Shown here: piece by piece, positions 12,098-40,594 of the stretch
Layout: each line of letters starts with the position of its first letter
Numbering within the stretch: the stretch's first letter is position 1
Assembly (NCBI GenBank): GCA_030038495.1
Contig: JASHOV010000117.1
Span: 1-58,205 of the forward strand
Direction: 5' to 3'
Source: Streptosporangiaceae bacterium
GTDB taxonomy: Bacteria; Actinomycetota; Actinomycetes; Streptosporangiales; Streptosporangiaceae
Length of the DNA: 58,205 nucleotides
Notes under the pieces: generated by a model
The model's input: only the letters and a program-made list of their open reading frames with translations
Told to the model about the DNA's origin: nothing
Database searches by the model: none
Made by a program: the position numbers and the translations under genes

Positions 12098-13471
12098 GTG
12101 GACGTCGGCTATCAGCGGCGGGTCGGGGCGACGTTTCGTGAGGTAATTAATGGCCTCAAGCGCAACAGCCTCGCGGCGGCCGCCGATCTCGGTGTCTCCG
12201 TTGAGACCATAGACGATATTATAGCCGGGAAGTGTCGGCTCACCAGTGAGTTGATTGCCCGCGCTGCCGCTATCTGGCCGGTGAATGAGCGCGATTTCTT
12301 TCCCGTGCACGACGATGCTGCCGACGGCGCGATCGTGATGCGTGCCGTGGAGTCCGAGAAGACCAGCAGGACGTTCGCGCGCGGCGGAATCGATTACTAC
12401 GAATACCGTGATACAGCGATGAGTCGGCTCGCGATGTTTCGGCCTGAGTGGATCAAAATGCTGCACTCGGTGCCGGGAACGGACCAGGACGATCCGACGG
12501 TACAGTGGAACAGCGGGCATTTCCTGTATCAATTCACATATTTCATTGGCGCGGTCAATTACTACTACTCGGCGGAAGGCCGGCGTTACTGCGCGGCGAT
12601 GGAAACGGGTGACTCGGTGTCCGGCCTGCCGTACGCGCCGCATAGTTTCGCGTGCCGCGACGGCGCGCCAGGGATGATCCTGGCACTTACCTATGGCGGC
12701 CGTCTGCTTGGCGACGCAGCGCATGAGCTGGGAGCGCTCGGCGAGAGCCTGGCCGAGCGTTATGCCTTCGACGCATCGGGGCCCCATGCGTCGGGTTCTT
12801 TGCTCGGTGTGCAGCTGGATAACACGGGATTTACCCGCGAATGGCTTGCTCGATCCGCCGGGATCCCGCTGGCTCACCTAGAGGACCTCCTGGCCGGGGT
12901 CGCGACAGCTGGATGGGAGGAGCTCGGGACGCTAGCGGAGGCCATGCGGATCAACGTCCGTGACCTGCTCCCCGTGGTGCCCGACACGCACCACGGCGTG
13001 TCGATCCTGCGCCGCCGCGATGTGCCGCGCTGGCCGTATCCCGACGGCGACTCCCCGCACTATGTGATCGGGGCGCTCGCCGGCACGCGCGTCTGCCCCA
13101 GCTCGCGCGGCCTCGAGATCGAGGTACGCGGTACCGACGCTTCCCGCGGAATGCTGCGGACAGGCCTGCATCAGTACTGTTACGTCCTAGGCTCCGAACC
13201 CGTGCGGCTTACCTGGACCTACGACGAGCGGACGTGCTCGCGGGAGCTTGCGCCAGGTGACTCGCTATACCTCAAGCCATTCGTCTCGCACTCTTTCACG
13301 AGTTGCGATCGGCCCGGACGGATCCTCGCACTGCGGATCGGCGGGAAGGTCGCTGGTGACGCCTGGCTGGAAGCCGCCGCGATCGGCGGGTCATCTCTGC
13401 GCCGCCTCACCTACGACACCGCACAGTGGTACGAGGAAGCGGGCACCACCGCGCGGCGGGAGATCCTGTGA
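12098..13471 (+). CDS. 2-hydroxyethylphosphonate dioxygenase-like non-heme Fe(II) oxygenase (HEPD/MPnS family, two HTH-cupin repeats)
   Basis: 457 aa with duplicated HTH+cupin architecture. Putative ligands are H141-x3-Q145...H182. GGAGGAGGG RBS before the GTG. GTGA overlap with pepM. Confidence 0.8.
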   Translation: MDVGYQRRVGATFREVINGLKRNSLAAAADLGVSVETIDDIIAGKCRLTSELIARAAAIWPVNERDFFPVHDDAADGAIVMRAVESEKTSRTFARGGIDYYEYRDTAMSRLAMFRPEWIKMLHSVPGTDQDDPTVQWNSGHFLYQFTYFIGAVNYYYSAEGRRYCAAMETGDSVSGLPYAPHSFACRDGAPGMILALTYGGRLLGDAAHELGALGESLAERYAFDASGPHASGSLLGVQLDNTGFTREWLARSAGIPLAHLEDLLAGVATAGWEELGTLAEAMRINVRDLLPVVPDTHHGVSILRRRDVPRWPYPDGDSPHYVIGALAGTRVCPSSRGLEIEVRGTDASRGMLRTGLHQYCYVLGSEPVRLTWTYDERTCSRELAPGDSLYLKPFVSHSFTSCDRPGRILALRIGGKVAGDAWLEAAAIGGSSLRRLTYDTAQWYEEAGTTARREIL

Positions 13472-14391
13472 CTGCTAGCAAAGGTCGCTACCTGCGCGAG
13501 CGGCTGGCCGGCGGCGACATTGTCCGCGCGGCGGGAGCCCACGACGGGATGAGTGCGCGCCTGGTCGAACGCTGCGGATTCGACGCGGTCTGGGCGTCCG
13601 GGTTCGAGCTCTCCACGAGCTTCGCGGTGCCCGACGCCAGCATCCTCACTATGTCGGAATTCCTGGCCGCGGCACGGACGATGCATGAAGCGGTGTCCAT
13701 TCCCGTGATCGCGGATTGCGACACGGGTTTCGGCGACAGCCTCAATGTCGCGTATATGGCTCGCCGCTACGAGGCAGCGGGGATCGCGGCGGTCTGCATC
13801 GAGGACAAGGTGTTCCCGAAGAGGAACAGCTTCGCCGGAGCCCGGCACGAGCTCGAGCCCGTGGATGTCTTCCAGGAGAAGATAGCCACCGCCAAGGCAA
13901 GCCAGCGAGATGGCAACCTGCTCGTCTTCGCCAGGACCGAGTCCCTGATCGCGGGCCAGGGAGTCGCCGAGGCGCTGCAGCGGGCCGCATCCTATGCAGA
14001 GGCGGGCGCGGACGCGATCTTGGTGCACTCCAGGGCCCGTACTCCCTGCGAGCTGTTCGCCTTCACCGATTCCTGGGACCGGCCCACGCCCGTGGTAGCC
14101 ATCCCGACCAGCTACTACGATGTCACCGCGGAGGAACTGGCCAGCCACGGCGTGCGAGTCGTGATCTACGCTAACCAGGCGATGCGGGCCGGCGTCCGCG
14201 CCATGACCGAGACTCTGCGGGAGATCCGCGAGAGCGGCACCTCGGCCTCGGTGGAGGCACGGATCGCTCCCATGACGGAACTGTTCGCCATCCAGGGACT
14301 GGACCATACTGTCACGGCCCTGCCGGGCACCGGCGCCAACGGCGAGCGCACCTGGCAGCTGGCGGCGGGTCAGGCCGGTAGCCGACCATGA
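13468..14391 (+). CDS. pepM: Phosphoenolpyruvate phosphomutase
   Basis: Isocitrate-lyase/PEP-mutase fold carrying the PepM-diagnostic EDKxxxxxNS motif (CIEDKVFPKRNSF). The GTG at 13468 overlaps the upstream stop. Confidence 0.9.
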   Translation: MTASKGRYLRERLAGGDIVRAAGAHDGMSARLVERCGFDAVWASGFELSTSFAVPDASILTMSEFLAAARTMHEAVSIPVIADCDTGFGDSLNVAYMARRYEAAGIAAVCIEDKVFPKRNSFAGARHELEPVDVFQEKIATAKASQRDGNLLVFARTESLIAGQGVAEALQRAASYAEAGADAILVHSRARTPCELFAFTDSWDRPTPVVAIPTSYYDVTAEELASHGVRVVIYANQAMRAGVRAMTETLREIRESGTSASVEARIAPMTELFAIQGLDHTVTALPGTGANGERTWQLAAGQAGSRP

Positions 14392-15422
14392 CGCGGGATG
14401 TCGTGGTCTACACCGACCCGCCTTGGGCGATAGCCGATGGCGTAGGTCCGCACGCGGCGATGGCGGCCATCGAGCAGTCGTGGCTAGCGGATCTGGCTGA
14501 GCTTCGGTTCGGGCCTTATGCCGACGCGGCCTATCTGGATGGTGCCCCCCTGTACGAGGTGGTTAAGGGCGCCACTGTGCTCGCCCTGTACCGTCGGCGT
14601 GCCACGGCCGAATTGCTAGGCGCGGCGGGAGACGGGCTCCTTGCGGTGGCGAGGGCCGGCGTCGGAACCGACAACCTCAACGTCGGCCTGCTCACCGAGC
14701 GCGGCCTTCTCGCGTTCAACGTGCCCGACTACTGCGTCGACGAGGTGGCGGCTCACACTCTCGCGCTGATCCTGGCGTGGGAACGTGACGTCGTAGGCCA
14801 GCACAACATCCTGGCCGATGGCCGGTTCGATATCTACGCGGGCAGGGTGCCGCGCAGGCTGAGCGAACGCACCGCCGGCATCGTCGGCGTGGGCAGGATC
14901 GGGCGGGCCGTCGCCGCGCGGTTGCGGGTCTTCTACCGGCGGGTGCTGGGCTGCGATCCGTATGTTCACGCCGATCTGATGGCTGGTTACGGCGTGGACT
15001 GCGTAGGCATGGACGAGCTGCTGGCAGGTTCCGATGTTGTCATCCTGCACTGCCCCCTCACCGCGGAGACCGTGGGCCTGATCGGGGAAACGGCGCTTGA
15101 GAAGATGCGCCCGGGCGCATTGCTTGTCAACACGGCCAGGGGCGGCCTGGTGGAGCCGGCTCCGCTGTACCGGGCGCTCACGGAGGGAACGCTGGGGGGA
15201 GCGGCGCTGGACGTCTTCTCGCCAGAGAACCCGCATGCGGATGCGGACTGGGCGAAAGTCGTGCAGTTGCCGCAGGTCGTGGTGTCAAGTCACCGGGCAT
15301 TCCTGTCCGCGGAATCGGAACGCAGTTCGCGGCAGCGGCTGGCCCAGGGCATCGCGCATGTGCTGCGGACCCGGCAGCCCCCTCCGCCTGGCCTGGTCGG
15401 CCTCGTCGCGGCGGGGTCCTGA
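14388..15422 (+). CDS. D-isomer-specific 2-hydroxyacid dehydrogenase (3-phosphoglycerate-dehydrogenase-like; PhpE-like)
   Basis: NAD-binding GIVGVGRIGRAVA, catalytic Arg (NTARGG) and His (SSHRAF). ATGA overlap with pepM. Confidence 0.85.
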   Translation: MTRDVVVYTDPPWAIADGVGPHAAMAAIEQSWLADLAELRFGPYADAAYLDGAPLYEVVKGATVLALYRRRATAELLGAAGDGLLAVARAGVGTDNLNVGLLTERGLLAFNVPDYCVDEVAAHTLALILAWERDVVGQHNILADGRFDIYAGRVPRRLSERTAGIVGVGRIGRAVAARLRVFYRRVLGCDPYVHADLMAGYGVDCVGMDELLAGSDVVILHCPLTAETVGLIGETALEKMRPGALLVNTARGGLVEPAPLYRALTEGTLGGAALDVFSPENPHADADWAKVVQLPQVVVSSHRAFLSAESERSSRQRLAQGIAHVLRTRQPPPPGLVGLVAAGS

Positions 15423-16849
15423 TGTTCCTGAACGGCAGGCTGCAGGGTGAGCCGCGGCTGGAGGTCCGCAGCCCGTGGAACGGTGCGCTGGCCGGCACGG
15501 CAGCGATGGATTCCGCCATCGCCGTCGATCAGGCCGTCCGCGCGGCTGCCGGCTACGACAGGCGGCTGACCGGAGAGCGCCGGTCGGCAATCTTGACCGA
15601 GACCGCGGGCCTGCTCCGATCCCGGCGCGAGGCGCTGGCGTCGCTCATCACGGCCGAGGCTGGGCTTTGCTATCGAGACAGCACCAGGGAGGTGGACCGG
15701 GCATGCGCGAATCTGCGGATAGCGGCGGAGGAAGCACGGCGGATCCACGGCCAGACCATGGAGCTGACGGCCGGAGAAGAGCGCCGAATGGCCCTGACAA
15801 TCCGGGAACCCGTCGGCACGGTCGCGGCGATCACCCCCTTCAACCGGCCCCTAAACCAGGTCGTGGTGAAGGTCGCGCCGGCTATCGCCGCGAACAACGC
15901 CGTGATCGTCAAGCCCTCAGAGAAGGCACCGCTGGCCGCCTTGGAACTGGCTCAGGCACTGGTGGACAGCGGCCTGCCTGCCGAAATGATCGGCGTGGTG
16001 ACGGGTGACCCTGCCGAGGTTGGGACAGCGCTCGTCACCCACGAACTGGTCGACATGGTGACGTTCACCGGCAGCGTCGCAACGGGGGAGCGCATCGCCG
16101 CGGCCGCGGGCATGCGCAAGCTGCTCCTGGAACTGGGCGGTAACGATCCGCTGATCGTCCTCGACGACGCGGACCTCGACCGGGCAGCGGCCATCGCGGT
16201 CGGCGGAGCGTTCGGCAACTCTGGTCAGTCATGCCGCGGGGTCAAGCGCATCCTCGTGACCCCTGGCATCGCCGATCAGTTCGTCGGCCGGCTGCAGGAA
16301 CGCACGCGCACGCTGCGCTTCGGTGACCCCCGCGACCCAGCCACCGACGTGGGGCCGCTGATCACCGAGCAGTACGCGGTGGCGGTGGTCGAGGTGTGCA
16401 GGGCGGCGGTGGCCCAGGGCGCCCGGCTGCTGTGCGGCGGGCACCGTGATGGCGCCGTCGTCGCCCCCACCGTCCTGGACCACGTAGATCCACGGGCCGA
16501 CGTGGTCACCGATGAGACCTTCGGCCCGGTGGCCCCCGTGATCAGAGTCGGTTCAGCCGACGAGGCGATCGAGGTGGCCAACAGCACGAGATACGGGCTG
16601 CAGGCTGGTGTGGTCACGAACAGCTTCGACGCCTTCCTGAGCATTGCCTCCGGTCTGCGAGTGGGCGCGGTGAACCTCATGGATGGCCCCAATTTCGACT
16701 CGCCCTACGTGCCATTCGGCGGGGTGAAGAAGAGTGGGCTCGGCCGTGAAGGAGTCCGGTTCGCCATAGCGGAGATGACGACGTTCAAGACCGTCGTGCT
16801 GCCCTGGCTGCCGCCATGGCCTGGCGGCGGATGTATGCAAGCCGAATGA
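15422..16849 (+). CDS. NAD(P)-dependent aldehyde dehydrogenase (PhpJ-like)
   Basis: ALDH motifs ELGGNDP and the catalytic Cys in GQSCRG. TGATG overlap with the upstream gene. Confidence 0.85.
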   Translation: MFLNGRLQGEPRLEVRSPWNGALAGTAAMDSAIAVDQAVRAAAGYDRRLTGERRSAILTETAGLLRSRREALASLITAEAGLCYRDSTREVDRACANLRIAAEEARRIHGQTMELTAGEERRMALTIREPVGTVAAITPFNRPLNQVVVKVAPAIAANNAVIVKPSEKAPLAALELAQALVDSGLPAEMIGVVTGDPAEVGTALVTHELVDMVTFTGSVATGERIAAAAGMRKLLLELGGNDPLIVLDDADLDRAAAIAVGGAFGNSGQSCRGVKRILVTPGIADQFVGRLQERTRTLRFGDPRDPATDVGPLITEQYAVAVVEVCRAAVAQGARLLCGGHRDGAVVAPTVLDHVDPRADVVTDETFGPVAPVIRVGSADEAIEVANSTRYGLQAGVVTNSFDAFLSIASGLRVGAVNLMDGPNFDSPYVPFGGVKKSGLGREGVRFAIAEMTTFKTVVLPWLPPWPGGGCMQAE

Positions 16850-16908: not shown

Positions 16909-17976
16909 ATGAGCGCGCTGCGCCGGCGATTGCTGCAGGCCGAGGCAACCTGGTGGATGTCGCGGATTCTGTTGTCCAATCTGTCCATCTGGACGATGCT
17001 GATGGGCTGGGTGGCCGCAGGTCCGCGCCTGGACTCAGCTCATGTGGCCAGGCTGCTCGCGCTGTATGCCGCGTTCGCCCTGGCCGGCGGTGCGCTCTTC
17101 GTAGTCAACGACCTCATGGACGTCGAGGGCGACAAGGTCACCGCTCCGTATTTGCCGTTGCCCTCCGGGCTGCTCAGCCGCAACGAGGCACGGGCGTCCG
17201 TCGCCGTCTACTTCGCGAGCGCGCTGATCTTCCTCTACCTGGCGTGCGCCCGGTTCGGGCTGTTCGTCACCTGCCTGGCGATCATCGTGGTGGCCGCCAT
17301 GGGCTCCATGGGGTACTCCAGATACAAGAAGGAGGGGATTGTCGCCTCAGTCCTCGTGGCCGTGCCGCAGACGATCATTCCCGCCGTCATCGGGTGGCTG
17401 GTGGCGGGAGGCGGATCGGCCTGGCGGCTGGTGGCCGTGCTCAGTTATGCCGTATTCGCCGGCGTCTCGAACAACGTACTCGCCGCTCTCCGCGACGTCG
17501 ATCTCGATGCCAGTGTCGGCAATCGGACGCTGCCGGTTCGGATCGGGGCACCGGCGGCGTTCCGGCTGATCGCGAACCTCGCTTTCGCTGCGCTCGCCGT
17601 GGTCGTCGTGCTCGCGGCCACCATTAACAGCGGAGCCTGGGCCTGGCCGTTCGCTGTGATCGCCGGCGTGGTGCTGTGGCAGGGCTACCGCCTCGCCGCG
17701 GCCAGGTTCGCTCAGCCGCACCGGGGTCGCAGGCAGCGCATGGACGACCTGCGGCTGTTCAAGACGGGGGAGTACGTGCGGCATGCGGCGATGGTAGCGG
17801 TGTTCAACCCGGTGGTTGCGATCGTGGCCTTCGCCTACCTGCTCGGCGGTTTCATGATTGGGTACCGGGTCTACCATCGCCGGCTGACCAGCGGTGCCAT
17901 CCGCGACGCCATGGATCGACTGCCAGCAGCTAGCGGCGCGGGCGTGAACGACCAGTTCTCGGCACCCACAGGGTGA
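16909..17976 (+). CDS. UbiA-family integral-membrane prenyltransferase
   Basis: AGGAG lies 8 nt before the ATG at 16909. ~8-9 TM helices. First Asp-rich motif NDLMDVEGD and second motif RDVDLDASVGNRTLPV, as in DGGGP/chlorophyll/UbiA synthases. Confidence 0.75.
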   Translation: MSALRRRLLQAEATWWMSRILLSNLSIWTMLMGWVAAGPRLDSAHVARLLALYAAFALAGGALFVVNDLMDVEGDKVTAPYLPLPSGLLSRNEARASVAVYFASALIFLYLACARFGLFVTCLAIIVVAAMGSMGYSRYKKEGIVASVLVAVPQTIIPAVIGWLVAGGGSAWRLVAVLSYAVFAGVSNNVLAALRDVDLDASVGNRTLPVRIGAPAAFRLIANLAFAALAVVVVLAATINSGAWAWPFAVIAGVVLWQGYRLAAARFAQPHRGRRQRMDDLRLFKTGEYVRHAAMVAVFNPVVAIVAFAYLLGGFMIGYRVYHRRLTSGAIRDAMDRLPAASGAGVNDQFSAPTG

Positions 17977-18274: not shown

Positions 18275-19021
18275 ATGAGCGCGGAGCCGACGGATCATGA
18301 GCCTGTGGCCGTGCCACGGGTGATAGTGGCTGGTCCGCGGTCGAGGTGGCGGTCGGCTGTCATCGCTGCGCTCAGCGCTGATTGCGAGTCCTGGGGAGTA
18401 GGGACCGGAGACGAACTTGTCACGCAGATCGTGGCCCGGGCCGTCGACCTGATTGTGCTGGACGGCAAGCTCCTCATCGGAGACGGCCGCTGGCTGAGTG
18501 CCGTACTGCGTTTGCGCGCGGAAAAGACGCAGGTGTTGTTGCACCTTCGTGACGACCAGGAAACGGATGGTCTACTTCACCTAACCTTCCACGGCGTGTG
18601 CAGCGGAAATGATACGGCCGGGCTGGTGCGCCAGGCGGCGACGCTGCTGGGCCTGGACGGCAGGCTCTCGCCAGGCACGCCAAGCGGCCGGTACGTGTCG
18701 TACGCGCTGAATTTCTTGACTGATCATTACTCAGAACATCTTGATGTCGCTATTGTAGCCACCAGGATGTCCTTGTCTCCCGGCTATCTTGCCCGGATAT
18801 TCCGCAATGAGATGCGTATAGGAATGAGGGAGTTCGTCCTTAGGATGCGCATCGAGGCAGCCAAGCTAATTCTGGCCGAGACCGATGCCACCCTCGGAGC
18901 GGTAGCCCAGCGTTCGGGGTTCTTCGACGCCGCGCATTTCAGTCGAGTATTCCGGCGCTACGAAGGATGTACGCCAGGACAATATCGGAGAACTGCGGTC
19001 ACATATGCCCGGCATCAATAG
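18275..19021 (+). CDS. AraC/XylS-family transcriptional regulator with N-terminal receiver-like (pseudo-receiver) domain
   Basis: C-terminal AraC HTH (LSPGYLARIFRNE...FFDAAHFSRVFRRYEGCTPGQYRR). The N-terminus is CheY-like but lacks the acidic pair. GGTGGAG RBS. GC3 is visibly lower than in the neighbouring genes. Confidence 0.8.
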   Translation: MSAEPTDHEPVAVPRVIVAGPRSRWRSAVIAALSADCESWGVGTGDELVTQIVARAVDLIVLDGKLLIGDGRWLSAVLRLRAEKTQVLLHLRDDQETDGLLHLTFHGVCSGNDTAGLVRQAATLLGLDGRLSPGTPSGRYVSYALNFLTDHYSEHLDVAIVATRMSLSPGYLARIFRNEMRIGMREFVLRMRIEAAKLILAETDATLGAVAQRSGFFDAAHFSRVFRRYEGCTPGQYRRTAVTYARHQ

Positions 19022-19577
19022 CCCAGCGCCCCACACGGATCCCATCGCCGTAGTGCATGGCCGCTTTCAGCCTTTGCACATTGGTCATCTCGAGTATCTG
19101 CTCGCGGGTGCAAGCCGAGCAGCCAGCCTGATCGTAGGGATCACTAATCCCGACCCGTGGCAGACCATCGCGGAACCCACCGACTCTCAGCGAGGTGAAT
19201 CGGAGTCCAACCCGTTCACGTTTTATGAGAGGTTTCTCATGGTGGAGGCGGCGCTGCGCGAACATGGCGTTACAGACTTCCGCATCGTCCCCTTCCCTCA
19301 TGGATTCCCGGAGCGGCTGCACCATTATGTGCCCGCCGACGCGTTGTTCTTGTTCACGATCTACGACGCGTGGGGCGAGGAGAAACTGCGCCGGCTGTCC
19401 GCGCTCGGGTGGCGTACAGAGGTGCTGTGGCGGCGGACAGCGAAGGTCACCTCCGGAACCGAACTGCGCCGCCGGATGCGCGAAGGCGCTGACTGGGAGC
19501 ATCTGGTGCCCGCGGGTACGGCCAGCGTTGTCAGGGAACTGCGGCTTACCGACAGACTGCGGGAAGTCTCACGATGA
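19005..19577 (+). CDS. HxGH-motif nucleotidyltransferase (cytidylyl/adenylyl-transferase superfamily; PhpF-like candidate)
   Basis: GRFQPLHIGH motif near the N-terminus and ~190 aa, like archaeal NMNAT-type enzymes. It overlaps the AraC stop by 17 nt and the next gene by ATGA. Confidence 0.75.
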   Translation: MPGINSPAPHTDPIAVVHGRFQPLHIGHLEYLLAGASRAASLIVGITNPDPWQTIAEPTDSQRGESESNPFTFYERFLMVEAALREHGVTDFRIVPFPHGFPERLHHYVPADALFLFTIYDAWGEEKLRRLSALGWRTEVLWRRTAKVTSGTELRRRMREGADWEHLVPAGTASVVRELRLTDRLREVSR

Positions 19578-20833
19578 CGGGCAAGGTCTATATCGTCGCA
19601 TTGTGCGGGGTGGCTGATGATCCCGCACCCGGCCTCACCCCGCTGGAGCGGGCTGACACCCCGCATCTGGACGCGATGGCCGCAGCCGGGGTTACCGGCC
19701 TGCTCGACGTCGTGGGGAAGGGCATACCTCCGGAATCCGACTCCGGAGCAATGGCACTCCTCGGGTACGACCCGCTGGTGCACTACACGGGACGAGGCCC
19801 GCTTGAGGGCCTGGGAACGGATTTCCTGGATCCGGAAGCTCCCGGCAGCACGGTTGTCTTCCGGCTGAACGTGGCCAGCCATGATGCCGTACGTGACCGG
19901 CTGGACCGGCGGACTGCGCGGGACCTGGACGACAATGAACTGACCGTCCTGCTTGAGGAGGTGCGGGCCGGGGTGAGCCTGGCCGACCATGCGGCGACGT
20001 TTCAGCTCATCGGGTTCGGTCGGCACCGTGGGGTGGTGGCATTTCATAGCCGTACGCGCCCGCTCAGCGGAAACGTCACCAACACCGACCCGCAATATAC
20101 TCGTCAGGGCCCGTTCGGCGTTCCGCGCGACATACCGCTCGCCCGTGCATTTGATTGCAGCCCCCTAGATGATTCACCCGGTGCTGGTAACACGGCCGCG
20201 GTGGTCACCGCCTTCACTGCCCGCAGTGCCGATGTTATGACGCGAAGTGCGGTGAACCGCCGCCGTCGCGCGGACGGCAGGATTCCCGCCAACACGTTCC
20301 TGCTGCGCGATGGCGGCGACCATGTGCCGAGGCTCCGTCCTTTCCATGATCTTTTCGGCCGCAGTCTCGCGATTTTCGGACAGGTACCGGCCGAGCGTGG
20401 TCTCGCCCTCCTGCTGCGCGCCGCATGGCGGGATTGCAAGCGTCCCGCGGACGAACCGGAGCCACGGTATTACCAGCGGCTGGCGGACGAACTTGAGGCC
20501 GCGCCAAGCGATACCGTTTATGTCCACGTCAAAGCGGCCGATGACGCCGCCCACGACGGCGATATGACCGGGAAAGTGGCAGCGATTGAACGGGTAGATA
20601 CGCTGTTCATCCAGCGCCTGAGGGACCGGCTGCGGCCCGGAGACATCTGCGTTCTCACCGGCGACCACGCCACTCCGTGGCGCTCTCGTATTCATTCCGC
20701 CGATCCGGTGCCCGTGGCGGTGACAGGGACCGGACGGCAAGCCGACGCGGTGAGTAGGTTCAGCGAGCGCTCAGCCGTCGACGGCGCACTCGGGCGGATG
20801 CTCGCCTGCGACATGCTTGCCACACTTGAGTGA
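19574..20833 (+). CDS. Cofactor-independent phosphoglycerate mutase-like metalloenzyme (archaeal ApgM type; PhpG-like)
   Basis: The N-terminal block TPHLDAMAAAGVTGLL...PESDSGAMALLGYDPLVHYTGRGPLEGLG matches ApgM-type iPGM. The usual N-terminal DGxxD reads CGVAD here. Confidence 0.8.
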   Translation: MTGKVYIVALCGVADDPAPGLTPLERADTPHLDAMAAAGVTGLLDVVGKGIPPESDSGAMALLGYDPLVHYTGRGPLEGLGTDFLDPEAPGSTVVFRLNVASHDAVRDRLDRRTARDLDDNELTVLLEEVRAGVSLADHAATFQLIGFGRHRGVVAFHSRTRPLSGNVTNTDPQYTRQGPFGVPRDIPLARAFDCSPLDDSPGAGNTAAVVTAFTARSADVMTRSAVNRRRRADGRIPANTFLLRDGGDHVPRLRPFHDLFGRSLAIFGQVPAERGLALLLRAAWRDCKRPADEPEPRYYQRLADELEAAPSDTVYVHVKAADDAAHDGDMTGKVAAIERVDTLFIQRLRDRLRPGDICVLTGDHATPWRSRIHSADPVPVAVTGTGRQADAVSRFSERSAVDGALGRMLACDMLATLE

Positions 20834-21139
20834 AGGCCATGGAAGCGGCGGAAGATCCTGGCGCGGCGGTCGTGAGGAACTCCCGGTGCCACGCGGTCGG
20901 CGCTGCCGCCAGCTGTGGATCGGCCCGGGGTCGGAGCCGATATGTACAAGATCCGGTATTAACCGTGCATGCATTGCAGCCGCGCCGTCGTAGATAATCG
21001 TTGGCACGTGATAACACAACCGGATCTGCGAAAGGTACCGAATACTAGCCCACGGGTCATTGGAGAATATCGAGCCGCCAACGCCCTCAACTCCAAAACT
21101 CCAGTCCCGTCCCTGCTCGAATCAGGAAAGAGATATAAC

Positions 21140-22012
21140 ATGGCCTCCGAGACGGATGTGCGCGGTTACCTCGGCTCGAAGACTCAGGTTCTCATCGACC
21201 GCTACGGCCCCGGGCCGGCGATCCACTACCATTTCGGCCTGTTCGACAGTGAAGCTGGAACCTACGGGTCCTTGGCGGAGATCCGCCGGCGAATCGTTGA
21301 TTCGCAGGAACGAATGCTCGCGTTTGCCGCGGAGGTATGGGATTCCTCGTCGATATTCACCGGGAAACTCCTCGACATCGGGTGCGGGCTCGGTGGCGGA
21401 TCCATCTACTGGGCGCTGCACTACGACGTCGAGGTCACCGCCGTGACGAATGTCGCCGAACACGCGGCCGTCGTCCATGACTTCGCCGACCAAGCCGGTG
21501 TGGGTACTCGCATCCGCCCGATAGTCGCTGACTTCTGCACGTCACAGCTCGATGGACCATTCGAAGCTGCGGTAGCGGTGGAGAGCGCCTCTCAGATGCC
21601 AAAGGACGCGTTCTTCCGAAGTGCGGGACAGGCCCTGCCAGTCGGCGGATACCTGTGTATTGAGGATGGTGTCGACACCACCGCAGCCTGGAAAGAACCT
21701 GCCGGGTCCTCATGGGTGGCTCCCATAGAGAACTACTGGAAGGCAAACCTCAGCACACTGACCGGGTACGTGGAGGCAGCCGAGGCCGCCGGATTCCGGC
21801 TGGATCGCAACGAGGATGTTACCGAGAACATCCTCGAATTCTGGATCCAGAACATGGCCTGGGCCGAAGCCAAACTCGCCCAGCCGGACTTGCCGGCAGA
21901 GGAGCAGCACAAGATGCTCCAGTCCATTCGGTGGCACATGTGGATGTTCCGCGCATACCGCGACCGGGGACTCGAACAACGAGTCGTCAGATTCAAGAAG
22001 GTCCGCAACTGA
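21140..22012 (+). CDS. Class I SAM-dependent methyltransferase
   Basis: The SAM motif LLDIGCGLGGG is preceded by IHYHFGLF. RBS-like AGGAAAG before the ATG at 21140. The upstream in-frame extension to 20969 has non-coding codon usage. Confidence 0.75.
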   Translation: MASETDVRGYLGSKTQVLIDRYGPGPAIHYHFGLFDSEAGTYGSLAEIRRRIVDSQERMLAFAAEVWDSSSIFTGKLLDIGCGLGGGSIYWALHYDVEVTAVTNVAEHAAVVHDFADQAGVGTRIRPIVADFCTSQLDGPFEAAVAVESASQMPKDAFFRSAGQALPVGGYLCIEDGVDTTAAWKEPAGSSWVAPIENYWKANLSTLTGYVEAAEAAGFRLDRNEDVTENILEFWIQNMAWAEAKLAQPDLPAEEQHKMLQSIRWHMWMFRAYRDRGLEQRVVRFKKVRN

Positions 22013-22107
22013 GCAGAGCGAGGCAGATTTTCCAGAATCTCGAATGTGCCTGCTCATACTTGCGAGTCTCGGCGACGGCGGGCGCCCGTAGGGCAGAGAG
22101 GTTGGAG

Positions 22108-22980
22108 ATGATGGCCGACTCGACCATAGGTACGGCGCTCGCGCGTAACACCTTCGAGCGGGAGGCGTTCACCTACTACGACACCAAGCGCAACGATGTT
22201 CTGAACCTGGATCTGGGGGACCTCGACGGCTTCCACCATCACCACTTCGCGGTTGGTGACTTCGACCGCTCCGTTCTCAGCGAGCCGCCCGACCGGCGCG
22301 AGGCGGCCATCGGTGCCGAGATCCACCGCCTGGAGACTGACCAGGTCGACCTCATCCTGCAGACCCTGACGGGAATCAGTCCGAGCAGCCGGCTGCTGGA
22401 CGCCGGTTCCGGACGTGGCGGCACCGCGCTGCTCATCCACCGGACCACCGGGTGCCAGGTCGACGGAGTAAATTTCTCCCCCTACCAGAACGACTTCGCT
22501 CGCCGCGCCGCGCAGCGGCACGGCTACGCCGCGCACATTCAGTTCCACGATCGCAACATGACCGACACTGGCTTCTCGGACGCCTCGTTCGATTACGTGG
22601 TCAGCAACGAGACCACCATGTATGTCGATGTCTTCGAAGCGTTCCGCGAGTTCGCCAGGCTCCTGCGTCCCGGCGGCCGCTATACGCTGCTCACCTGGTG
22701 CCGCAATGACTCGGTCGCACCCGGCCTGACTGAGGCCGACGCGATCAACGCCCACTATTGCTGCCACACCCACCGCCGCAGCACATACCTCAATGCGCTG
22801 CTGGCCGCCAGTCTCATTCCCGACCAGGTCGACAACCTCACGATCCCGGCCATTCCTTATTGGGAGCTGCGCTCGGAGTCCGAGCTCGCCACCGGAATCG
22901 AACAGCTCTACCTGGACGGCTACCGCAGCGATCGCCTCAACTACATCCGCATCACCTCCCGCAAGTCCTCGACTCATTAG
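22108..22980 (+). CDS. Prenyl-diphosphate C-methyltransferase homologue (geranyl diphosphate 2-C-methyltransferase family), copy 1
   Basis: It matches remembered GPPMT blocks throughout: DGFHHHHFAVG, EIHRLETDQ, LLDAGSGRGGT, SNETTMYVDV, GGRY, PYWELRS, TGIEQLY. Confidence 0.85.
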   Translation: MMADSTIGTALARNTFEREAFTYYDTKRNDVLNLDLGDLDGFHHHHFAVGDFDRSVLSEPPDRREAAIGAEIHRLETDQVDLILQTLTGISPSSRLLDAGSGRGGTALLIHRTTGCQVDGVNFSPYQNDFARRAAQRHGYAAHIQFHDRNMTDTGFSDASFDYVVSNETTMYVDVFEAFREFARLLRPGGRYTLLTWCRNDSVAPGLTEADAINAHYCCHTHRRSTYLNALLAASLIPDQVDNLTIPAIPYWELRSESELATGIEQLYLDGYRSDRLNYIRITSRKSSTH

Positions 22981-23066
22981 CGCAGGCCGCCGAACCCCGC
23001 TCAAGAGCATCACCAGGCCGCTAAGAGCGTCGCTTGTCCAGTACCCGCACATCAAGGAGTTCTTTG

Positions 23067-23951
23067 ATGGAATCAGCTGAATCGGCAACGCGAGAAGAAG
23101 TTATCCGCAACGCTCATGACGAAACGCTCGTCAACTACTGGGACAGCAAGAAGGATGACAACATCAACCTTCTTCTCGGCAAGTCCGACGGTATCTATCA
23201 TCATCACTACGGCATCGGGGACTACGACCATTCGATCCTTGATCTCCGTAGCGAGGAGCGGGAGGCGCGCATAGCAGCAGAAATGCATCGCCTGGAAAAC
23301 GCGCAGACCGAGCTGATTCTCGAGGCACTGGGTGAGGTCGCGCCCGACGACCGCGTACTCGACCTGGGATCCGGTCGGGGTGGCACCAGCTTCATGATCC
23401 ATGACAGATTCGGCTGTTTCGTCGACGGCGTCAACATATCCCGATACCAGATCGACTTCTCGCGGCGACTAGCGGAAGAGCGCGGCGTTGCGGAAAAGGT
23501 CAAGTTCCATTACCGGAATATGCTGGCTACTGGCTTCAGCGACCACTCGTTCCAGCGCCTGGTCTCGAATGAGACGACGGCGGATTTGCTGGACCTCTTC
23601 GAGGCGTTCGGTGAGTTCTCGCGCGTGTTGGCACCCGGGGGCCGGTACGTCGTGTTTACCTGGTGCTACAACGACATGACCAATCCGCCTCGTACTGAAA
23701 TCGAAGAGATCGACCGCCACTACCCGGGCAATCACATTCACTCGCGCAGCACCTACTTCAAAGCGCTCGCCGCCAACGGCCTCGTGCCCTGCAAGGTTGC
23801 CGACCTCACCGCCGAGGGAATCCCATACTGGGATTTGCGGTCACGATCCGACCTGCGGACGGGAGTTGAAGAAGCATTCCTGACGGCCTACCGGGAGAAC
23901 AGGCTGAATTTCATGCTGATCGCGGCGGACCGCGCCTGCGGTCACGGTTGA
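23067..23951 (+). CDS. Prenyl-diphosphate C-methyltransferase homologue (GPPMT family), copy 2
   Basis: AAGGAG lies 7 nt before the ATG at 23067. GPPMT-like blocks DGIYHHHYGIG, EMHRLENAQ, VLDLGSGRGGT, GGRY, IHSRSTYF, IPYWDLRS, TGVEEAF and MLIAADRA. Confidence 0.85.
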   Translation: MESAESATREEVIRNAHDETLVNYWDSKKDDNINLLLGKSDGIYHHHYGIGDYDHSILDLRSEEREARIAAEMHRLENAQTELILEALGEVAPDDRVLDLGSGRGGTSFMIHDRFGCFVDGVNISRYQIDFSRRLAEERGVAEKVKFHYRNMLATGFSDHSFQRLVSNETTADLLDLFEAFGEFSRVLAPGGRYVVFTWCYNDMTNPPRTEIEEIDRHYPGNHIHSRSTYFKALAANGLVPCKVADLTAEGIPYWDLRSRSDLRTGVEEAFLTAYRENRLNFMLIAADRACGHG

Positions 23952-23977
23952 TCGCACCTCTGCGGAGGGAGTAACTG

Positions 23978-25072
23978 GTGACCGTCTCACGCACCCATCC
24001 AGACACGTCCCCATTCGACGTCGCTGACGTGCGACACCGCGTGAATATCGCGCTGGAGACCTTTCTCGACAGCCGGGCTGGCCATATTGCCGACGTAGGA
24101 GGTGACGATCTGTCGGCGGTATTGGAAACGATCCGGAAGTTCGTGCTGTCAGGGGGCAAGCGGATCCGGCCAGTGATGTGTTACTGGGGCTGGCGCGGGG
24201 CAGGCGGCCCAGACTGCGAGGAGATCGTCACGGCGGCAGCCTCACTGGAATTGTTCCACGCCTTCGGGTTGATCCACGATGACATCATCGACAGCAGCGA
24301 AGCGCGCCGAGGCCATCCGACAGTGCACCGCACATTCGCCTCAACGCACGCGAAGTCACACTGGCGAGGCGAGGCGGAGGCGTTCGGCACGGCAATCGCG
24401 ATCATCGTCGGCGACCTGTGCTTGTTCTGGTCAAATACCATGTTCCACGCCTGCGGGCTGTCGCCTCAGGTGTTGCTGGCCGGTGATTCAGTGCTGGACG
24501 CCATGCGCGCCGATACGTTTTTCGGCGAGTTCCTGGAGATAATGGACCAGGCTCGGGGCGCCTATTCCGCCGCCAGGGCAGCCACCATCAGTCGTTACAA
24601 GACGGGCAAGTACACGGTGGAGTACCCGCTGAAGCTGGGTGCCGTGCTGGCGGGCGCGGGTGCCGAACTACTGGCGGCTTATTCACAGTTCGGGACCCCG
24701 CTTGGTGAAGCCTTCCAGCTCCGCGATGACGTACTTGGCGTGTTCGGCGACCCGACCGTCACCGGCAAGTCGAATCTCGACGATCTGTATGAAGGTAAGC
24801 CGACCATGCTCATGGCGTTCGCCCTCGAGCGCGCCAATGCTGGGCAGGCGGAGCTTATCAAGACCCTGCATGGCAGCCCGGTCCTGGACGAGCACGGCGC
24901 TGGTGAGCTTCGCCGTGTCATGGTCGAGACAGGCGCCCTCGCCTCCGTTGAGGAGCTGATCAGCAGGCGCACCGAGCAGGCACTGAAAGTACTGGCCGCC
25001 ACGCCCGTCCCGGACCCGACCCGCAGTGTGCTGACCGCCCTGGCCACCGCAGTCACCGACCGCGGAGCCTGA
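23978..25072 (+). CDS. trans-Polyprenyl diphosphate synthase (short/medium chain)
   Basis: FARM LIHDDIID and SARM FQLRDDVLGVFGD. Phe at position -5 relative to FARM suggests a short (C10-C15) product. GGAGGGA RBS before the GTG. Confidence 0.9.
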   Translation: MTVSRTHPDTSPFDVADVRHRVNIALETFLDSRAGHIADVGGDDLSAVLETIRKFVLSGGKRIRPVMCYWGWRGAGGPDCEEIVTAAASLELFHAFGLIHDDIIDSSEARRGHPTVHRTFASTHAKSHWRGEAEAFGTAIAIIVGDLCLFWSNTMFHACGLSPQVLLAGDSVLDAMRADTFFGEFLEIMDQARGAYSAARAATISRYKTGKYTVEYPLKLGAVLAGAGAELLAAYSQFGTPLGEAFQLRDDVLGVFGDPTVTGKSNLDDLYEGKPTMLMAFALERANAGQAELIKTLHGSPVLDEHGAGELRRVMVETGALASVEELISRRTEQALKVLAATPVPDPTRSVLTALATAVTDRGA

Positions 25073-25095
25073 CCAATGGATGGAAATCGATCGCG

Positions 25096-26292
25096 ATGAG
25101 CCGTCATATCACCGCTGCGGAATTCGTTGACGCCCTGCGCGTCCACGGCGTGCAGAACGTCACGGGGGTGCCGTGCGGGCACCTCGCCGGGCCGTGGGCA
25201 CTGTTCGATAGAGCTGGAGAGCTGACCCCGGCCGCCTCGGAGGGCACCGCCCTGGCGATCGCGGCTGGCTGGGAACTGGGGGGCCGGATGTCGGCCGTCC
25301 TCTGCCAGAACTCAGGGCTCGGCAACCTACTCAACCCCCTTGCCTCACTCCTGCTGCCCTACCGAATACCCGTTCTCATCATCATGACGATGCGGGGCTG
25401 GCCTGACCCAGGGGATGACGAGCCACAGCACGCGGCCATGGGCACATCAACCACGGGCATGCTGGAGGCGCTGGACGTGCCATACGCATTCCTGGCGCCG
25501 GAGAAGCTGCAGGAGGCACTTGTCCACGCGGCCGATGCGCGGGCGCAGGGTCGGCCTTTTTTCCTGCTGGTGCCACGGGAGAGCATCGGTAAGGCGGCAG
25601 AGGCACCCTCGGCCGGGGTGCCTCCCGTCGGGGAGCGGCTCACACGCGCACGGGTTGTGTCCGCCCTCATGACGCAGTTGACCGACGAACTGCTGGTCAC
25701 CACCACCGGCTCTTTGTCCCGGCAGGCCCATCACGAGCGGGACCGCCCGGGCACGTTCTATATGCAGGGCTCGATGGGGCATGCCTCGGCCATCGGGACC
25801 GGCCTGGCGATGGCTCATCCGGATCGCGGCACGGTCATTCTCGACGGCGACGGTGCCTTTCTCATGCACCTGGGCACCGGTTCCACCATAGGCGCGTCCG
25901 GTGCGCGGAACCTTGTGCACATCATCGTCGACAATGGCTGCTATGAGTCCACTGGCTGCCAGGCGTCGACCTCGCGCTGCCTGGATTGGCCGAGTCTTGG
26001 TCACGGGCTGGGCTACAGATCAGTGGTCACCTGTGACTCGGAGCCGGGGCTGGCGGGAAATCTGCGAACCGCGCTGACCGCCGAGGGGCCGGTACTCCTT
26101 GTGCTCACGGTCGTGCCCACTCCGGACGAGGTCCACCCGAGAGCATCGGCGTCGCGCAGCCTGTCCGATATCGCGGAACGATTCCGGGCGGTCGCCACCC
26201 AGACGACGACCTCCGCGGGAACGGACCCGACGGCGGCCATGGAAACGCGCGCGAGGCCGGCGCTCAGGGGCGGCGGCAGGAGCTCACCATGA
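25096..26292 (+). CDS. ppd: Phosphonopyruvate decarboxylase (ThDP-dependent)
   Basis: Sulfopyruvate/phosphonopyruvate decarboxylase-like N-terminus (FVDALRVHGVQNVTGVPCG) and ThDP motif GDGAFLMH...IIVDNG. It sits in the cluster with pepM. Confidence 0.85.
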   Translation: MSRHITAAEFVDALRVHGVQNVTGVPCGHLAGPWALFDRAGELTPAASEGTALAIAAGWELGGRMSAVLCQNSGLGNLLNPLASLLLPYRIPVLIIMTMRGWPDPGDDEPQHAAMGTSTTGMLEALDVPYAFLAPEKLQEALVHAADARAQGRPFFLLVPRESIGKAAEAPSAGVPPVGERLTRARVVSALMTQLTDELLVTTTGSLSRQAHHERDRPGTFYMQGSMGHASAIGTGLAMAHPDRGTVILDGDGAFLMHLGTGSTIGASGARNLVHIIVDNGCYESTGCQASTSRCLDWPSLGHGLGYRSVVTCDSEPGLAGNLRTALTAEGPVLLVLTVVPTPDEVHPRASASRSLSDIAERFRAVATQTTTSAGTDPTAAMETRARPALRGGGRSSP

Positions 26293-27494
26293 GCAGCTCG
26301 GCACGGGACGGAGGTGGCATTGCCCTTCTGGCCGGCCGGGGGAGCTTCGAGAAGGTGCCCAGCCTGTGCGCGGGCCGCCGTGTGCTGGTCATCGCGAGTG
26401 CCGGGGCGCTGCAGCGGAGCCGGGCCATCACGTGGCTGCCGACGGACGCCAGGACGTTCACGGCGTTCCGCCCCAACCCCACAGTTGCGCAGGCGCTGGC
26501 GGCGGCGCAGTTCTGCCGCTCCTCGGGCGTTGATCTGGTCGTAGGTCTCGGCGGTGGCTCCGCGCTTGACGTCGCCAAGGCCGGGCGCGTTCTCCCCGCC
26601 GACGCTCACGATGCCGACGAGGTCATCGCCGGCCGTCGCCCGGCGCCGGCAGACAGACCGGAGTTGCTGCTCGTACCTACGACGGCGGGAACGGGCAGCG
26701 AGGTGACAAGTTTCGCGACCCTCTACCAGGGTTACAGGAAGGTCTCTCTCGACACCCCGGCAGCGCGTGCCGATATCGCCGTCGTGGACCCTGCCTTGAC
26801 CGAAACCTGCCCGCCTCGCCTGACGTGGACGTGTGCCTTCGACTGCCTGGCGCACGCTATGGAGTCGCTGTGGTCCGTCCGTTCCAGCGCCCGCTCCCGT
26901 GAATGGGCAGTGGCAGCCCTGCGCATGCTGATACCTGTACTGACGGACGCGGATGATCTGCCCGATACGGCCGAACGCGATACCCTTAGCCGGGCCGCGA
27001 CCCTGGCCGGGCGGGCCATCGGCATCACCCGCACCACAGCAGCCCATGCGATGTCCTATCCCCTGACCGCGCACCTGGGCGTCCCGCATGGCCTTGCCTG
27101 CGCGCTCAACCTGACCTGGCTGGTTCCCCTGGTGGAGACGGCGCAGCCGGAGCAGGTAACCGACGAACGCGGCCCGGCTGTGGTACGTGAAGCGGTCGAT
27201 ACCCTGCGGATTGCGTTCAACGCTCAGGGCATGGACCTGGCCAGTGTGCTGCGGGCAATGATCGGCCGCCGGGTAGAGCCGCCGTACGGCGACGCCCGGT
27301 GCCCGCGGCGGCCGGGCGCCCGCACGGACGATGCCTGGATCGATCTGCTCGTGGCGGAGGGAATGTCCTCGAATCGGATGACAGGGACGCCTGTGCGGCT
27401 GGAACGATGGCAGGTGCGGGCTGGGCTGGAAACGATCCTCCCGGTCATGCGATCAGCAGGCGGGCACCAAGCTCGGCTTCGTCAAGCCCGGTGA
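26289..27494 (+). CDS. Iron-containing (group III) alcohol dehydrogenase, candidate phosphonoacetaldehyde reductase
   Basis: The GLGGGSALDVAKA motif and metal-binding His residues (HAMES, HAMSY) are present. ATGA overlap with ppd. Confidence 0.85.
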   Translation: MSSSARDGGGIALLAGRGSFEKVPSLCAGRRVLVIASAGALQRSRAITWLPTDARTFTAFRPNPTVAQALAAAQFCRSSGVDLVVGLGGGSALDVAKAGRVLPADAHDADEVIAGRRPAPADRPELLLVPTTAGTGSEVTSFATLYQGYRKVSLDTPAARADIAVVDPALTETCPPRLTWTCAFDCLAHAMESLWSVRSSARSREWAVAALRMLIPVLTDADDLPDTAERDTLSRAATLAGRAIGITRTTAAHAMSYPLTAHLGVPHGLACALNLTWLVPLVETAQPEQVTDERGPAVVREAVDTLRIAFNAQGMDLASVLRAMIGRRVEPPYGDARCPRRPGARTDDAWIDLLVAEGMSSNRMTGTPVRLERWQVRAGLETILPVMRSAGGHQARLRQAR

Positions 27495-28182
27495 TGTCGC
27501 GGTTGCGCGAAGCCCACAGGCCGGAGGCCAGGTCATCGGCTAGCTGTTGCGTCATCCGCTGCTCGAGCTGTGGGCCCATTGCGGCGAATATCGAGATTCC
27601 GCGGCGGACCTCCTCACGCAGGTACTGCTCGGGTCGGCGCCAGTACGCGTGGAAGAACCCGTCCGCGCAATTCCACGGTATCGGCACTGGTTCCAGCCGG
27701 GCACCGACCACTTCAGCGGACTGGCTCATGGTCGGGCGGCCCGCACCAAGCGCCACGAGCTCGGGCAGGTAGTCGCGGGTGAGCCAGAAGTCGGCGATGT
27801 GCGCAGCGTCGAAGTTGAATACGACCACCCGGCGGGCGACCCTGCGCATCTCACGCATCCCGGCGATCGGGTCTGGCCAGTGATGATCCGATAGCACCGC
27901 CATGGCAGCATCGAACGACTTATCGGCGAAAGGGAGGCTCTGTGCGGCCGCGGCCAGGCAGGGTGCAGCGCCGGCCGGCCGCTGTGCCCGCATGACCGCG
28001 GATGGCTCCACCGCCGTCACGTCGCGCCCGGGCGGCTCATAGGACCCCGTGCCGGCACCGACATTTAAGATAGTGTCGGCATCCTCTAGAGCTGCCCAGA
28101 TCCGTGCCGCGATGCGTGGCTCAGTCTGCCTCGTTGCCGTATAGCTGTGGCCAATGGCGTCATAGAACATGCCAGCAGACAT
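27445..28182 (-). CDS. Class I SAM-dependent methyltransferase (Methyltransf_11-like)
   Basis: ILNVGAGTGSY motif. Convergent with the ADH gene and overlapping it by 50 nt. Confidence 0.8.
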   Translation of the reverse strand: MSAGMFYDAIGHSYTATRQTEPRIAARIWAALEDADTILNVGAGTGSYEPPGRDVTAVEPSAVMRAQRPAGAAPCLAAAAQSLPFADKSFDAAMAVLSDHHWPDPIAGMREMRRVARRVVVFNFDAAHIADFWLTRDYLPELVALGAGRPTMSQSAEVVGARLEPVPIPWNCADGFFHAYWRRPEQYLREEVRRGISIFAAMGPQLEQRMTQQLADDLASGLWASRNRDITGLDEAELGARLLIA

Positions 28183-40591: not shown

Positions 40592-40594
40592 TCC

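Follow-up and report, generated by a model that had tools for sequence, protein, structure and literature searches.

C-methylation of prenyl diphosphates is known from several systems. The geranyl diphosphate (GPP) 2-C-methyltransferase (GPPMT) of 2-methylisoborneol (2-MIB) biosynthesis, represented by SCO7701 of Streptomyces coelicolor (PDB 3vc1, 4f84), has a 2-MIB synthase as its partner. A second group methylates isopentenyl diphosphate (IPP) and includes monMT (WP_033037353, S. monomycini), azuMT (WP_005164808, A. azurea), Lon23/argMT of longestin biosynthesis (BAF98640, S. argenteolus), and MT1 and MT2 of Rhodococcus fascians. These enzymes have a trans-prenyl synthase partner and belong to terpene-synthase, cytokinin or octaprenyl (longestin) pathways; Lon23 is paired, as Ozaki et al. 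2018 are said to have described, with the prenyl synthase Lon22. In R. fascians, IPP is methylated sequentially by the tandem enzymes MT1 and MT2 (PMC10881772). A further family contains BezA, the GPP C6-methyltransferase of benzastatin biosynthesis, and a farnesyl diphosphate (FPP) methyltransferase (PDB 9tb4, 'C6-FPP methyltransferase'). Each enzyme family is thus known, as are tandem IPP methyltransferases (R. fascians) and pairs of IPP methyltransferase and synthase (longestin). Contig JASHOV010000117.1 of a Streptosporangiaceae bacterium (assembly GCA_030038495.1; the whole stretch of 58,205 nucleotides is called the window below) encodes three methyltransferases of these kinds, here named MTA, MTB and MTC, together with a prenyl diphosphate synthase. 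Their genes lie within an array of phosphonate biosynthesis genes that also encodes a UbiA-family prenyltransferase. On balance we favour the reading that these four genes supply a methyl-branched prenyl diphosphate within a phosphonate operon, and that the UbiA protein couples the chain to a phosphonate-derived acceptor.

All four open reading frames (ORFs) listed in a preliminary description of this DNA are present on the + strand, and their homology matches are far above chance level. The phosphonate cluster and the UbiA gene around them were absent from that description. Its suggestion that prenyl diphosphates or IPP are methylated agrees in part with the present assignments. MTA, MTB and MTC are placed by sequence in families known, from their characterised members, for C-methylation of prenyl diphosphates, and the IPP option, as in longestin and other IPP methyltransferase systems, is the favoured one; the assignment to GPPMT did not stand.

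MTB (22108..22980, + strand) and MTC (23067..23951, + strand), described earlier as copies 1 and 2 of a GPP C-methyltransferase, each contain a class I S-adenosylmethionine (SAM) methyltransferase domain by Pfam, as does MTA. Their sole strong match among solved structures is GPP 2-C-methyltransferase (PDB 4f84; 8.6e-62 for MTB and 1e-72 for MTC). The motif blocks that suggested the earlier label are all found in the translations: DGFHHHHFAVG and DGIYHHHYGIG, EIHRLE and EMHRLE, GSGRGGT, GGRY, PYWELRS and PYWDLRS, TGIE and TGVE. Both proteins share the fold family of SCO7701, its conserved blocks and its invariant Glu (E173), with E-values of ~1e-62 to 1e-73. The label itself must be dropped, however. 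The NCBIfam equivalog model for GPPMT, NF041943, has a cut-off of 400 bits and served as the test of GPPMT membership; MTB scores 297.9 bits and MTC 362.2 bits, both under the cut-off. Among the controls, the IPP methyltransferases monMT, azuMT and Lon23 score 310.1, 315.8 and 338.4, and the true GPPMT P0289 (Nocardiopsis) scores 539.9. MTB shares 64% identity with monMT and with azuMT, 50% with Lon23 and 38.5% with GPPMT; the values for MTC are 55.6% (Lon23), 50.7% (monMT) and 45.6% (GPPMT). IPP was accepted by all seven enzymes of the monMT/azuMT/Lon23 clade that have been assayed (PMC9401056).

The two copies also differ from GPPMT at a substrate-binding position. In GPPMT, Gly202 of the TGCW motif (S. 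coelicolor numbering) accommodates the distal isoprene unit of GPP. The corresponding alignment column was located from chain offsets and does fall on Gly. Across 211 aligned family members, the column holds Gly in 68 proteins, which are 60-100% identical to true GPPMT, and Trp in the other 143, which are 42-56% identical to it. MTB, MTC, monMT, azuMT and Lon23 all have Trp. The substitution G202M changes GPPMT into a dimethylallyl diphosphate (DMAPP) methyltransferase (review PMC10881772), and a bulky residue at this site is therefore consistent with a C5 substrate. MTB has the Trp-class residue at all six columns that discriminate the two classes. A phylogeny had been proposed as a check and was run by neighbour joining (NJ) on 215 family members: MTB groups with monMT and azuMT and MTC lies near Lon23, but bootstraps are weak. 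Support is confined to shallow nodes; since intermediate nodes have bootstraps below 60, the subfamily call rests on the curated model cut-off and the discriminating residues and not on the tree. The favoured assignment, made from these sequence criteria, is that MTB and MTC belong to the IPP-methyltransferase branch and are not true GPP 2-C-methyltransferases.

MTC is the more divergent of the two. Directly after the invariant Glu it reads SNETTADLLDL, with A-D-L-L and a one-residue insertion. This divergence had been pointed out before; it is real, rare among the 211 members and stronger than was then said. A Met conserved in 99% of the family is replaced by Ala (in MTC) or Pro, a Tyr conserved in 97% is replaced by Leu, and the insertion is restricted to MTC and its 93% identical orthologue P0241. 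Further changes, Cys to Asn and Glu to Asp, fall on sites that are 93-94% conserved. The altered catalytic loop makes MTC a candidate for a new substrate or a new regiochemistry. MTB and MTC share 49.7% identity, and both have closer relatives elsewhere (66-70%), so they are not recent duplicates; the earlier view that the copies are not redundant is borne out by these values and by a dN/dS (ratio of nonsynonymous to synonymous substitution rates) of 0.105 for both against the orthologous locus L004 described below. In contrast to the known IPP methyltransferase systems, the window thus holds two lineages of this type plus a third methyltransferase of BezA type, and its context is a phosphonate cluster. 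A tandem pair is also found at positions 1905-3680 of JGI contig Ga0454606_0004113 (locus L097), where an MTB-like methyltransferase (68% identity) is followed by a divergent family member with Trp at the Gly202 site and an altered loop (NNEAAEPLESMD). No prenyl synthase is encoded near the L097 pair.

MTA (21140..22012, + strand) starts at Met58 of ORF 20969-22012; the identical start is called in an independent assembly. The protein had been described as a loose relative of the GPPMT family. The IHYHFGLF motif on which that was based is present, but the relationship lies elsewhere: by sequence, MTA is a homologue of BezA and the C6-FPP methyltransferase. Its best structural matches are 9tb4 (6.5e-56) and BezA (7fbh, 7.8e-53), with which it aligns end to end; the alignment with 9tb4 spans residues 4-286. 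It retains the residues aligned to BezA Glu170, the catalytic Glu, and Trp210, whose roles were reportedly established by Tsutsumi et al. 2022. The same roles are given in a review (PMC10881772). MTA is longer beside the Trp210 equivalent, by ~8 residues when compared with 9tb4 and by two insertions of 4 residues when compared with BezA. The nearest relative beyond its own orthologue is 52% identical. Relatives of MTA adjoin terpene synthases and prenyl synthases, and in one of the related loci (L007) an IPP methyltransferase co-occurs with a BezA-like methyltransferase. MTA itself is linked to IPP-methyltransferase-type enzymes and a UbiA protein, not to a P450/benzastatin or terpene-cyclase pathway as BezA and 9tb4 are. 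The W210 site of BezA was considered as an indicator of GPP versus FPP preference and rejected, as the natural C6-FPP methyltransferase has the same Trp.

The fourth gene (23978..25072, + strand) lies directly 3' of MTC and encodes a trans-prenyl diphosphate synthase, probably a short-chain one (PF00348, 1.7e-49). Its best structural matches are the geranylgeranyl diphosphate synthase (GGPPS) of C. glutamicum (PDB 3lk5, 1.2e-70) and the FPP synthase (FPPS) of M. tuberculosis (8f8f, 8.5e-67). There are two Asp-rich motifs; the first (FARM) is DDIID, preceded by Phe at position -5 and Gly at -4 (LFHAFGLIHDDIID). In prenyl synthases, short products go with a large aromatic side chain at position -5 or -4 from FARM. 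The Phe at -5, which had been noted previously, corresponds to Trp in M. tuberculosis FPPS and to Cys in C. glutamicum GGPPS, and under this rule it argues for the short product that was predicted from it. Relatives of the synthase stand beside IPP-methyltransferase-type genes in L091 (53.5% identity, with an MTC-like methyltransferase as neighbour) and in L002 and L003 (43-45%). The enzyme is a candidate for the use of methylated extender units.

The usual partner of a GPPMT, a class I terpene cyclase, had been reported as absent, and the search of the 58-kb window agrees. No terpene-synthase domain was found by Pfam in any plausible ORF scanned across the window, and six terpene synthases from related loci, used singly in tblastn and as an ad hoc hidden Markov model (HMM), gave zero matches in its six frames. 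The window likewise contains no 2-MIB-type cyclase just outside the cluster, a finding that had been named as one that would turn the genes into an ordinary 2-MIB locus. A cyclase hidden among the ORFs without a Pfam match was considered and rejected, as none of these ORFs has paired DDxxD and NSE motifs. The phosphonate context and the UbiA protein are the likely reason why no cyclase is needed.

MTA, MTB, MTC and the synthase are genes 9-12 of a 14-gene array, all on the + strand, that covers ~15.4 kb (12098-27494) with overlaps or short gaps between neighbours. The order is HEPD, PepM, PhpE, PhpJ, UbiA, AraC, PhpF, PhpG, MTA, MTB, MTC, synthase, Ppd and PhpC. PepM (13468..14391) is a phosphoenolpyruvate (PEP) mutase (PF13714, 3.8e-56; TIGR02320, 292 bits). 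It is followed by a PhpE-like D-2-hydroxyacid dehydrogenase (14388..15422; PF02826, PF00389), 51% identical to a gene product of the PhpG locus of Kitasatospora phosalacinea (L015), and by a PhpJ/PhnY-like aldehyde dehydrogenase (15422..16849; TIGR03250 phosphonoacetaldehyde dehydrogenase, 527 bits). An AraC-family regulator (18275..19021; PF12833, PF00165) precedes a PhpF-like nucleotidyltransferase for phosphonoformate activation (19005..19577; PF01467), which is 61-67% identical to the product of the PhpG-adjacent gene in L010-L017; the function of PhpF has been described (bioRxiv 10.1101/2025.05.01.651723). The next gene encodes a PhpG-like phosphonoformyl transferase (19574..20833; NCBIfam PhpG equivalog NF038358, 544.1 bits, cut-off 545), the function being taken from the NCBIfam naming. 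Beyond the prenyl synthase, and starting 23 bp 3' of it, are the genes for phosphonopyruvate decarboxylase (Ppd, 25096..26292; TIGR03297, 297.5 bits, cut-off 312.5) and for a PhpC-like Fe-alcohol dehydrogenase, a phosphonoacetaldehyde reductase (26289..27494; PF00465; TIGR03405 Phn_Fe-ADH, 185 bits). All are on the + strand. The SRR21679882 assembly contains this cluster as well.

The first gene of the array (12098..13471, + strand) encodes a homologue of 2-hydroxyethylphosphonate dioxygenase (HEPD), of the class II or methylphosphonate synthase (MPnS)-like type (PDB MPnS 6b9s, 1.2e-110; S. albus HEPD 6b9r, 1.5e-104). No model in Pfam or NCBIfam detects it. Its residues opposite MPnS Phe162 and Ile184 are Tyr and Gly, a pair that Born et al. 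2017 reportedly found to mark the HEPD type; identity as an MPnS was rejected on this basis. Its match to PhpD of the phosphinothricin cluster is weak (2e-9), and it is far nearer to MPnS (1e-110) and to S. albus HEPD (1e-104).

The array therefore contains the complete early-pathway set of phosphinothricin biosynthesis, with homologues of PepM, Ppd, PhpC, PhpD (HEPD), PhpE, PhpJ, PhpF and PhpG. Compared with the early phosphinothricin/phosalacine pathway, all eight enzyme homologues are present, and six of them are 39-61% identical to proteins of the K. phosalacinea locus; in contrast, the window lacks genes for PhpH, PhpI, the P-methylase and the non-ribosomal peptide synthetases (NRPS), has a class II MPnS-like HEPD, and carries UbiA instead. 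The enolase-like PhpH of the K. phosalacinea locus finds no match in the window at E<0.5, and PhpI (CPEP mutase) is absent, there being a single PepM-like gene in the window. In the phosphinothricin pathway these two enzymes turn the PhpG product into a phosphinate. Read from these homologies, the phosphonate route would run from PEP through phosphonopyruvate, phosphonoacetaldehyde, 2-hydroxyethylphosphonate (2-HEP), hydroxymethylphosphonate and phosphonoformate to CMP-phosphonoformate, followed by PhpG transfer to phosphoglycerate. It would end at the PhpG step, since PhpH and PhpI are missing. A scan for promoters and terminators between 11.7 and 28.4 kb gave counts at chance level.

The UbiA-family prenyltransferase (16909..17976, + strand; PF01040, 7.1e-25), the proposed coupling enzyme, is encoded between PhpJ and PhpF. 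Both of its Asp-rich motifs, NDxxDxxxD and DxxxD, are intact (NDLMDVEGD and DVDLD) and are kept in the orthologues of L004 and L010. The nearest structural relatives are digeranylgeranylglyceryl phosphate (DGGGP) synthase, which forms an ether on a glycerol-phosphate derivative (best PDB match 6m31, 3.4e-7), and chlorophyll synthase, which forms a carboxylate ester. Given this chemistry, the undehydrated PhpG product, through its hydroxyl or carboxylate, would be an attractive acceptor.

PhpG was searched for in a set of one genome per species (no match with a single-sequence query, 80 loci with an alignment-based one), which places this arrangement among phosphonate loci. MTA, MTB, MTC and the synthase occur in none of the 80 PhpG loci. 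PhpF and PhpG are found together in 36 of the 80, and 34 of these 36 also have PhpH. The exceptions are L024, on a truncated contig, and L010, from a metagenome-assembled genome (MAG) of the Micromonosporaceae, which has UbiA. The L010 operon reads PhyH-MFS-PhpF-PhpG-HEPD-PhpE-PhpJ-UbiA-phosphatase, then PepM, alcohol dehydrogenase and Ppd, and its UbiA is 47% identical to that of the window. A metagenome scan with a UbiA alignment recovered the same operon in two more loci, L093 and L095. L095 is distinct; L093 may be from the same organism as L010, because the two have the same identity values to the window proteins. These three operons share with the window the phosphonate set and the UbiA orthologue (47-49%) and likewise lack PhpH and PhpI; unlike in the window, no gene for a methyltransferase or a prenyl synthase lies within 10 kb of them, and they carry PhyH, MFS (major facilitator superfamily) and Exo_endo_phos genes. 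Presumably they use an ordinary prenyl diphosphate. PhpF-PhpG with UbiA and minus PhpH/PhpI is a recurring uncharacterised type of phosphonate cluster, of which the window is a variant with its own methylated-prenyl supply.

Orthologues of the whole prenyl module were found in metagenomes. L004 (forest soil, ENA HuN_forest_Scaff2828376) has 85-93% identical and intact orthologues of UbiA, MTA, MTB, MTC and the synthase. The four genes from MTA to the synthase are also carried by the Logan contigs L005 and L006, which begin just 5' of MTA. Positions 1-3200 of L004 correspond to 12010-21101 of the window and contain colinear scraps of HEPD, PepM, PhpE and PhpJ; AraC, PhpF and PhpG are gone. This decay needs at least four deletions. 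The linkage of prenyl and phosphonate genes is thus ancestral and not an assembly artefact, because L004 keeps the remnants in colinear order. Between the window and L004, dN/dS rises from 0.105 (MTB and MTC) through 0.16 (synthase) and 0.25 (MTA) to 0.43 (UbiA). MTB and MTC are under purifying selection; that UbiA has the largest of the five values would be in keeping with a constraint relaxed by loss of the acceptor pathway in L004.

L004 and L006 also have extra DNA with remnants (L006 1402-1638; L004 4084-4414 and 2755-3105). Between MTA and MTB it encodes the final 29 residues of a SAM synthetase (PF02773, 1.1e-5); 5' of MTA, a C-terminal remnant of LytB/IspH is weakly matched (2.9e-4, under the cut-off). 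An ordinary terpenoid cluster with an IPP methyltransferase, ispH and metK may have been the ancestor of the prenyl module.

In the pathway we propose, MTB and MTC would methylate IPP, and one of them may act on the already methylated C6 unit, giving C6/C7 extender or starter units of homo-IPP type. Sequential or complementary action is suggested by the MT1/MT2 precedent in R. fascians and by the L097 tandem pair. The synthase would condense the methylated units, with or without normal IPP and DMAPP, to a chain of GPP or FPP length, to which MTA would add a methyl group at an internal double bond. With no cyclase step, the UbiA protein would then attach the chain to a nucleophile that the phosphonate enzymes produce. 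The preferred acceptor would be the hydroxyl or carboxylate of the phosphonoformyl-glycerate adduct; this is the weakest step of the proposal. Substrates, order of steps and product are all inferred from gene content and homology.

Several points weigh against this reading. The acceptor proposed for UbiA is tentative, and the best structural relative of the protein matches at only 3.4e-7. PhpG falls 0.9 bit short of its equivalog cut-off. MTC is less clearly of the Trp class than MTB (three Trp-class residues, one Gly-class and two unique at the six discriminating columns), and the bootstrap for its placement within the family is weak in the NJ tree. The chain-length preference of MTA is unreadable from its sequence, because the FPP-specific structure keeps the Trp too. 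The block from AraC to the synthase (18275-25072) has a GC content of 0.585-0.659, lowest in MTC, compared with 0.67-0.69 in the flanking PepM-UbiA and Ppd-alcohol dehydrogenase segments and a window mean of 0.674; the contrast suggests a mosaic origin. Finally, L004 retained the prenyl module after loss of its phosphonate genes, so the module may work without a phosphonate acceptor.

The last two points lead to the alternative of two independent, interleaved pathways, one for a stand-alone methylated isoprenoid and one for an unrelated small phosphonate, in which the UbiA protein prenylates a quinone- or lipid-like acceptor or acts as a non-canonical UbiA-type cyclase. We regard this as unlikely, although it is the alternative with the most to be said for it. 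L004 keeps UbiA, MTA, MTB, MTC and the synthase, and L005 and L006 the part from MTA to the synthase, after the deletions that affected HEPD, PepM, PhpE, PhpJ, AraC, PhpF and PhpG; the retained methyltransferase and synthase genes have a low dN/dS; the SAM synthetase and possibly IspH remnants point to ancestry in an ordinary terpenoid cluster; the GC content differs between the blocks; and in L090 an MTC-like methyltransferase occurs with a UbiA protein in a non-phosphonate context. However, UbiA orthologues, one of them 47% identical, stand within phosphonate operons that have neither methyltransferase nor synthase (L010/L093, L095), and, bar the truncated L024, only UbiA-bearing loci lack PhpH among the loci with PhpF and PhpG. 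Ppd and PhpC, both indispensable to the phosphonate route, are encoded immediately beyond the synthase, and the high dN/dS of UbiA in the comparison with L004 fits relaxed constraint once the acceptor was lost. The interleaved same-strand genes, the operons of L010 type, the tie between PhpH absence and UbiA, and the remnants in L004 argue for one pathway and not for two neighbours.

An ordinary locus for 2-MIB or a homoterpene, with GPP or FPP methyltransferases and a cyclase just outside the region or elsewhere in the genome, is very improbable. It would account for the strong family-level homology to GPPMT, for the name 'geranyl diphosphate 2-C-methyltransferase' that JGI has automatically given to many relatives, and for the terpene synthases that adjoin relatives of MTA and MTB in L003, L007, L008 and L091. 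It is contradicted by the scores of both copies under the GPPMT cut-off, by their Trp at 202, by the lack of any terpene synthase in 58 kb (Pfam, tblastn and HMM) and by flanks that encode phosphonate enzymes. There is also little to recommend the idea that the methyltransferases act after coupling, or O- or C-methylate a phosphonate intermediate, and not free prenyl diphosphates. SAM methyltransferases are frequent in phosphonate pathways in general, and the loop of MTC, changed at residues conserved in 97-99% of the family, could signal a new substrate; but clusters of L010 type combine phosphonate genes and UbiA without any of these methyltransferases, and the methyltransferases stay with the synthase in L004-L006 after the loss of phosphonate genes. 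All characterised members of both families, moreover, take prenyl diphosphates (PMC9401056, PMC10881772).

Within the favoured reading, a supply module feeding a UbiA-catalysed coupling, a more specific product can be put forward tentatively. It would be the first terpenoid-phosphonate hybrid among natural products: a head derived from phosphonoformate, probably phosphonoformyl-glycerate as the undehydrated PhpG product, O-prenylated by a dedicated UbiA enzyme with a poly-methylated chain of roughly C11-C18, for whose assembly two IPP methyltransferases, a tailored short-chain synthase and a C6 methyltransferase would be responsible; loci of L010 type would make the unmethylated parent. Phosphonate natural products are rare and highly bioactive, and those described so far are, to our knowledge, small polar molecules. 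If the proposal is true, an isoprenoid attached after PhpG would be a new structural class and a new fate for CMP-phosphonoformate. Such a product would imitate a prenyl diphosphate, or the head group of an ether lipid, while resisting hydrolysis. The combination of three prenyl-diphosphate C-methyltransferases from two families with a synthase and a transferase, and not with a cyclase, would amount to natural combinatorial methylation of building blocks, which we otherwise know only as an engineered process.

The literature search had incomplete coverage and is weak evidence of novelty; within it, no description was found of three such methyltransferases with a synthase and UbiA in a PepM cluster, of a phosphonate pathway terminating at PhpG and coupled to UbiA, or of a prenylated phosphonate natural product. 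Nearest by description are two gene cluster families (PMC8942020), one of Streptomyces (GCF 742) with PepM, polyprenyl synthetase, P450, methyltransferase and TauD, and one of S. rimosus (GCF 782) with PhpC, VlpB, PhnY and HEPD.

Some related loci and neighbouring genes should also be mentioned. One Pseudonocardiaceae MAG, JBOHGG01, has a phosphonate locus of PhpG/PhpH type on contig L019. On another contig of the same MAG (L090), the MTC-like methyltransferase (65%) is encoded in an operon with UbiA, two DegT aminotransferases, FAD oxidoreductases and AMP-binding enzymes. PhpF-PhpG-PhpH-like triads are found in many Clostridia and Eubacteriales MAGs of gut bacteria and anaerobes (L031-L044), with no detectable homologue of the window PepM, Ppd or HEPD within 10 kb. 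In the window, 3' of the array, two class I methyltransferase genes lie on the - strand (27445-28182 and 31963-33033), the first of which shares ~50 bp with the 3' end of the PhpC-like gene. Further downstream, a second same-strand set (38909-48285) resembles another small biosynthetic cluster; it encodes an AMP-binding enzyme, an MFS transporter, a DegT-type aminotransferase, a sulfotransferase, a short-chain dehydrogenase/reductase (SDR), a methyltransferase, a familyless protein of 291 amino acids and an FAD oxidase.

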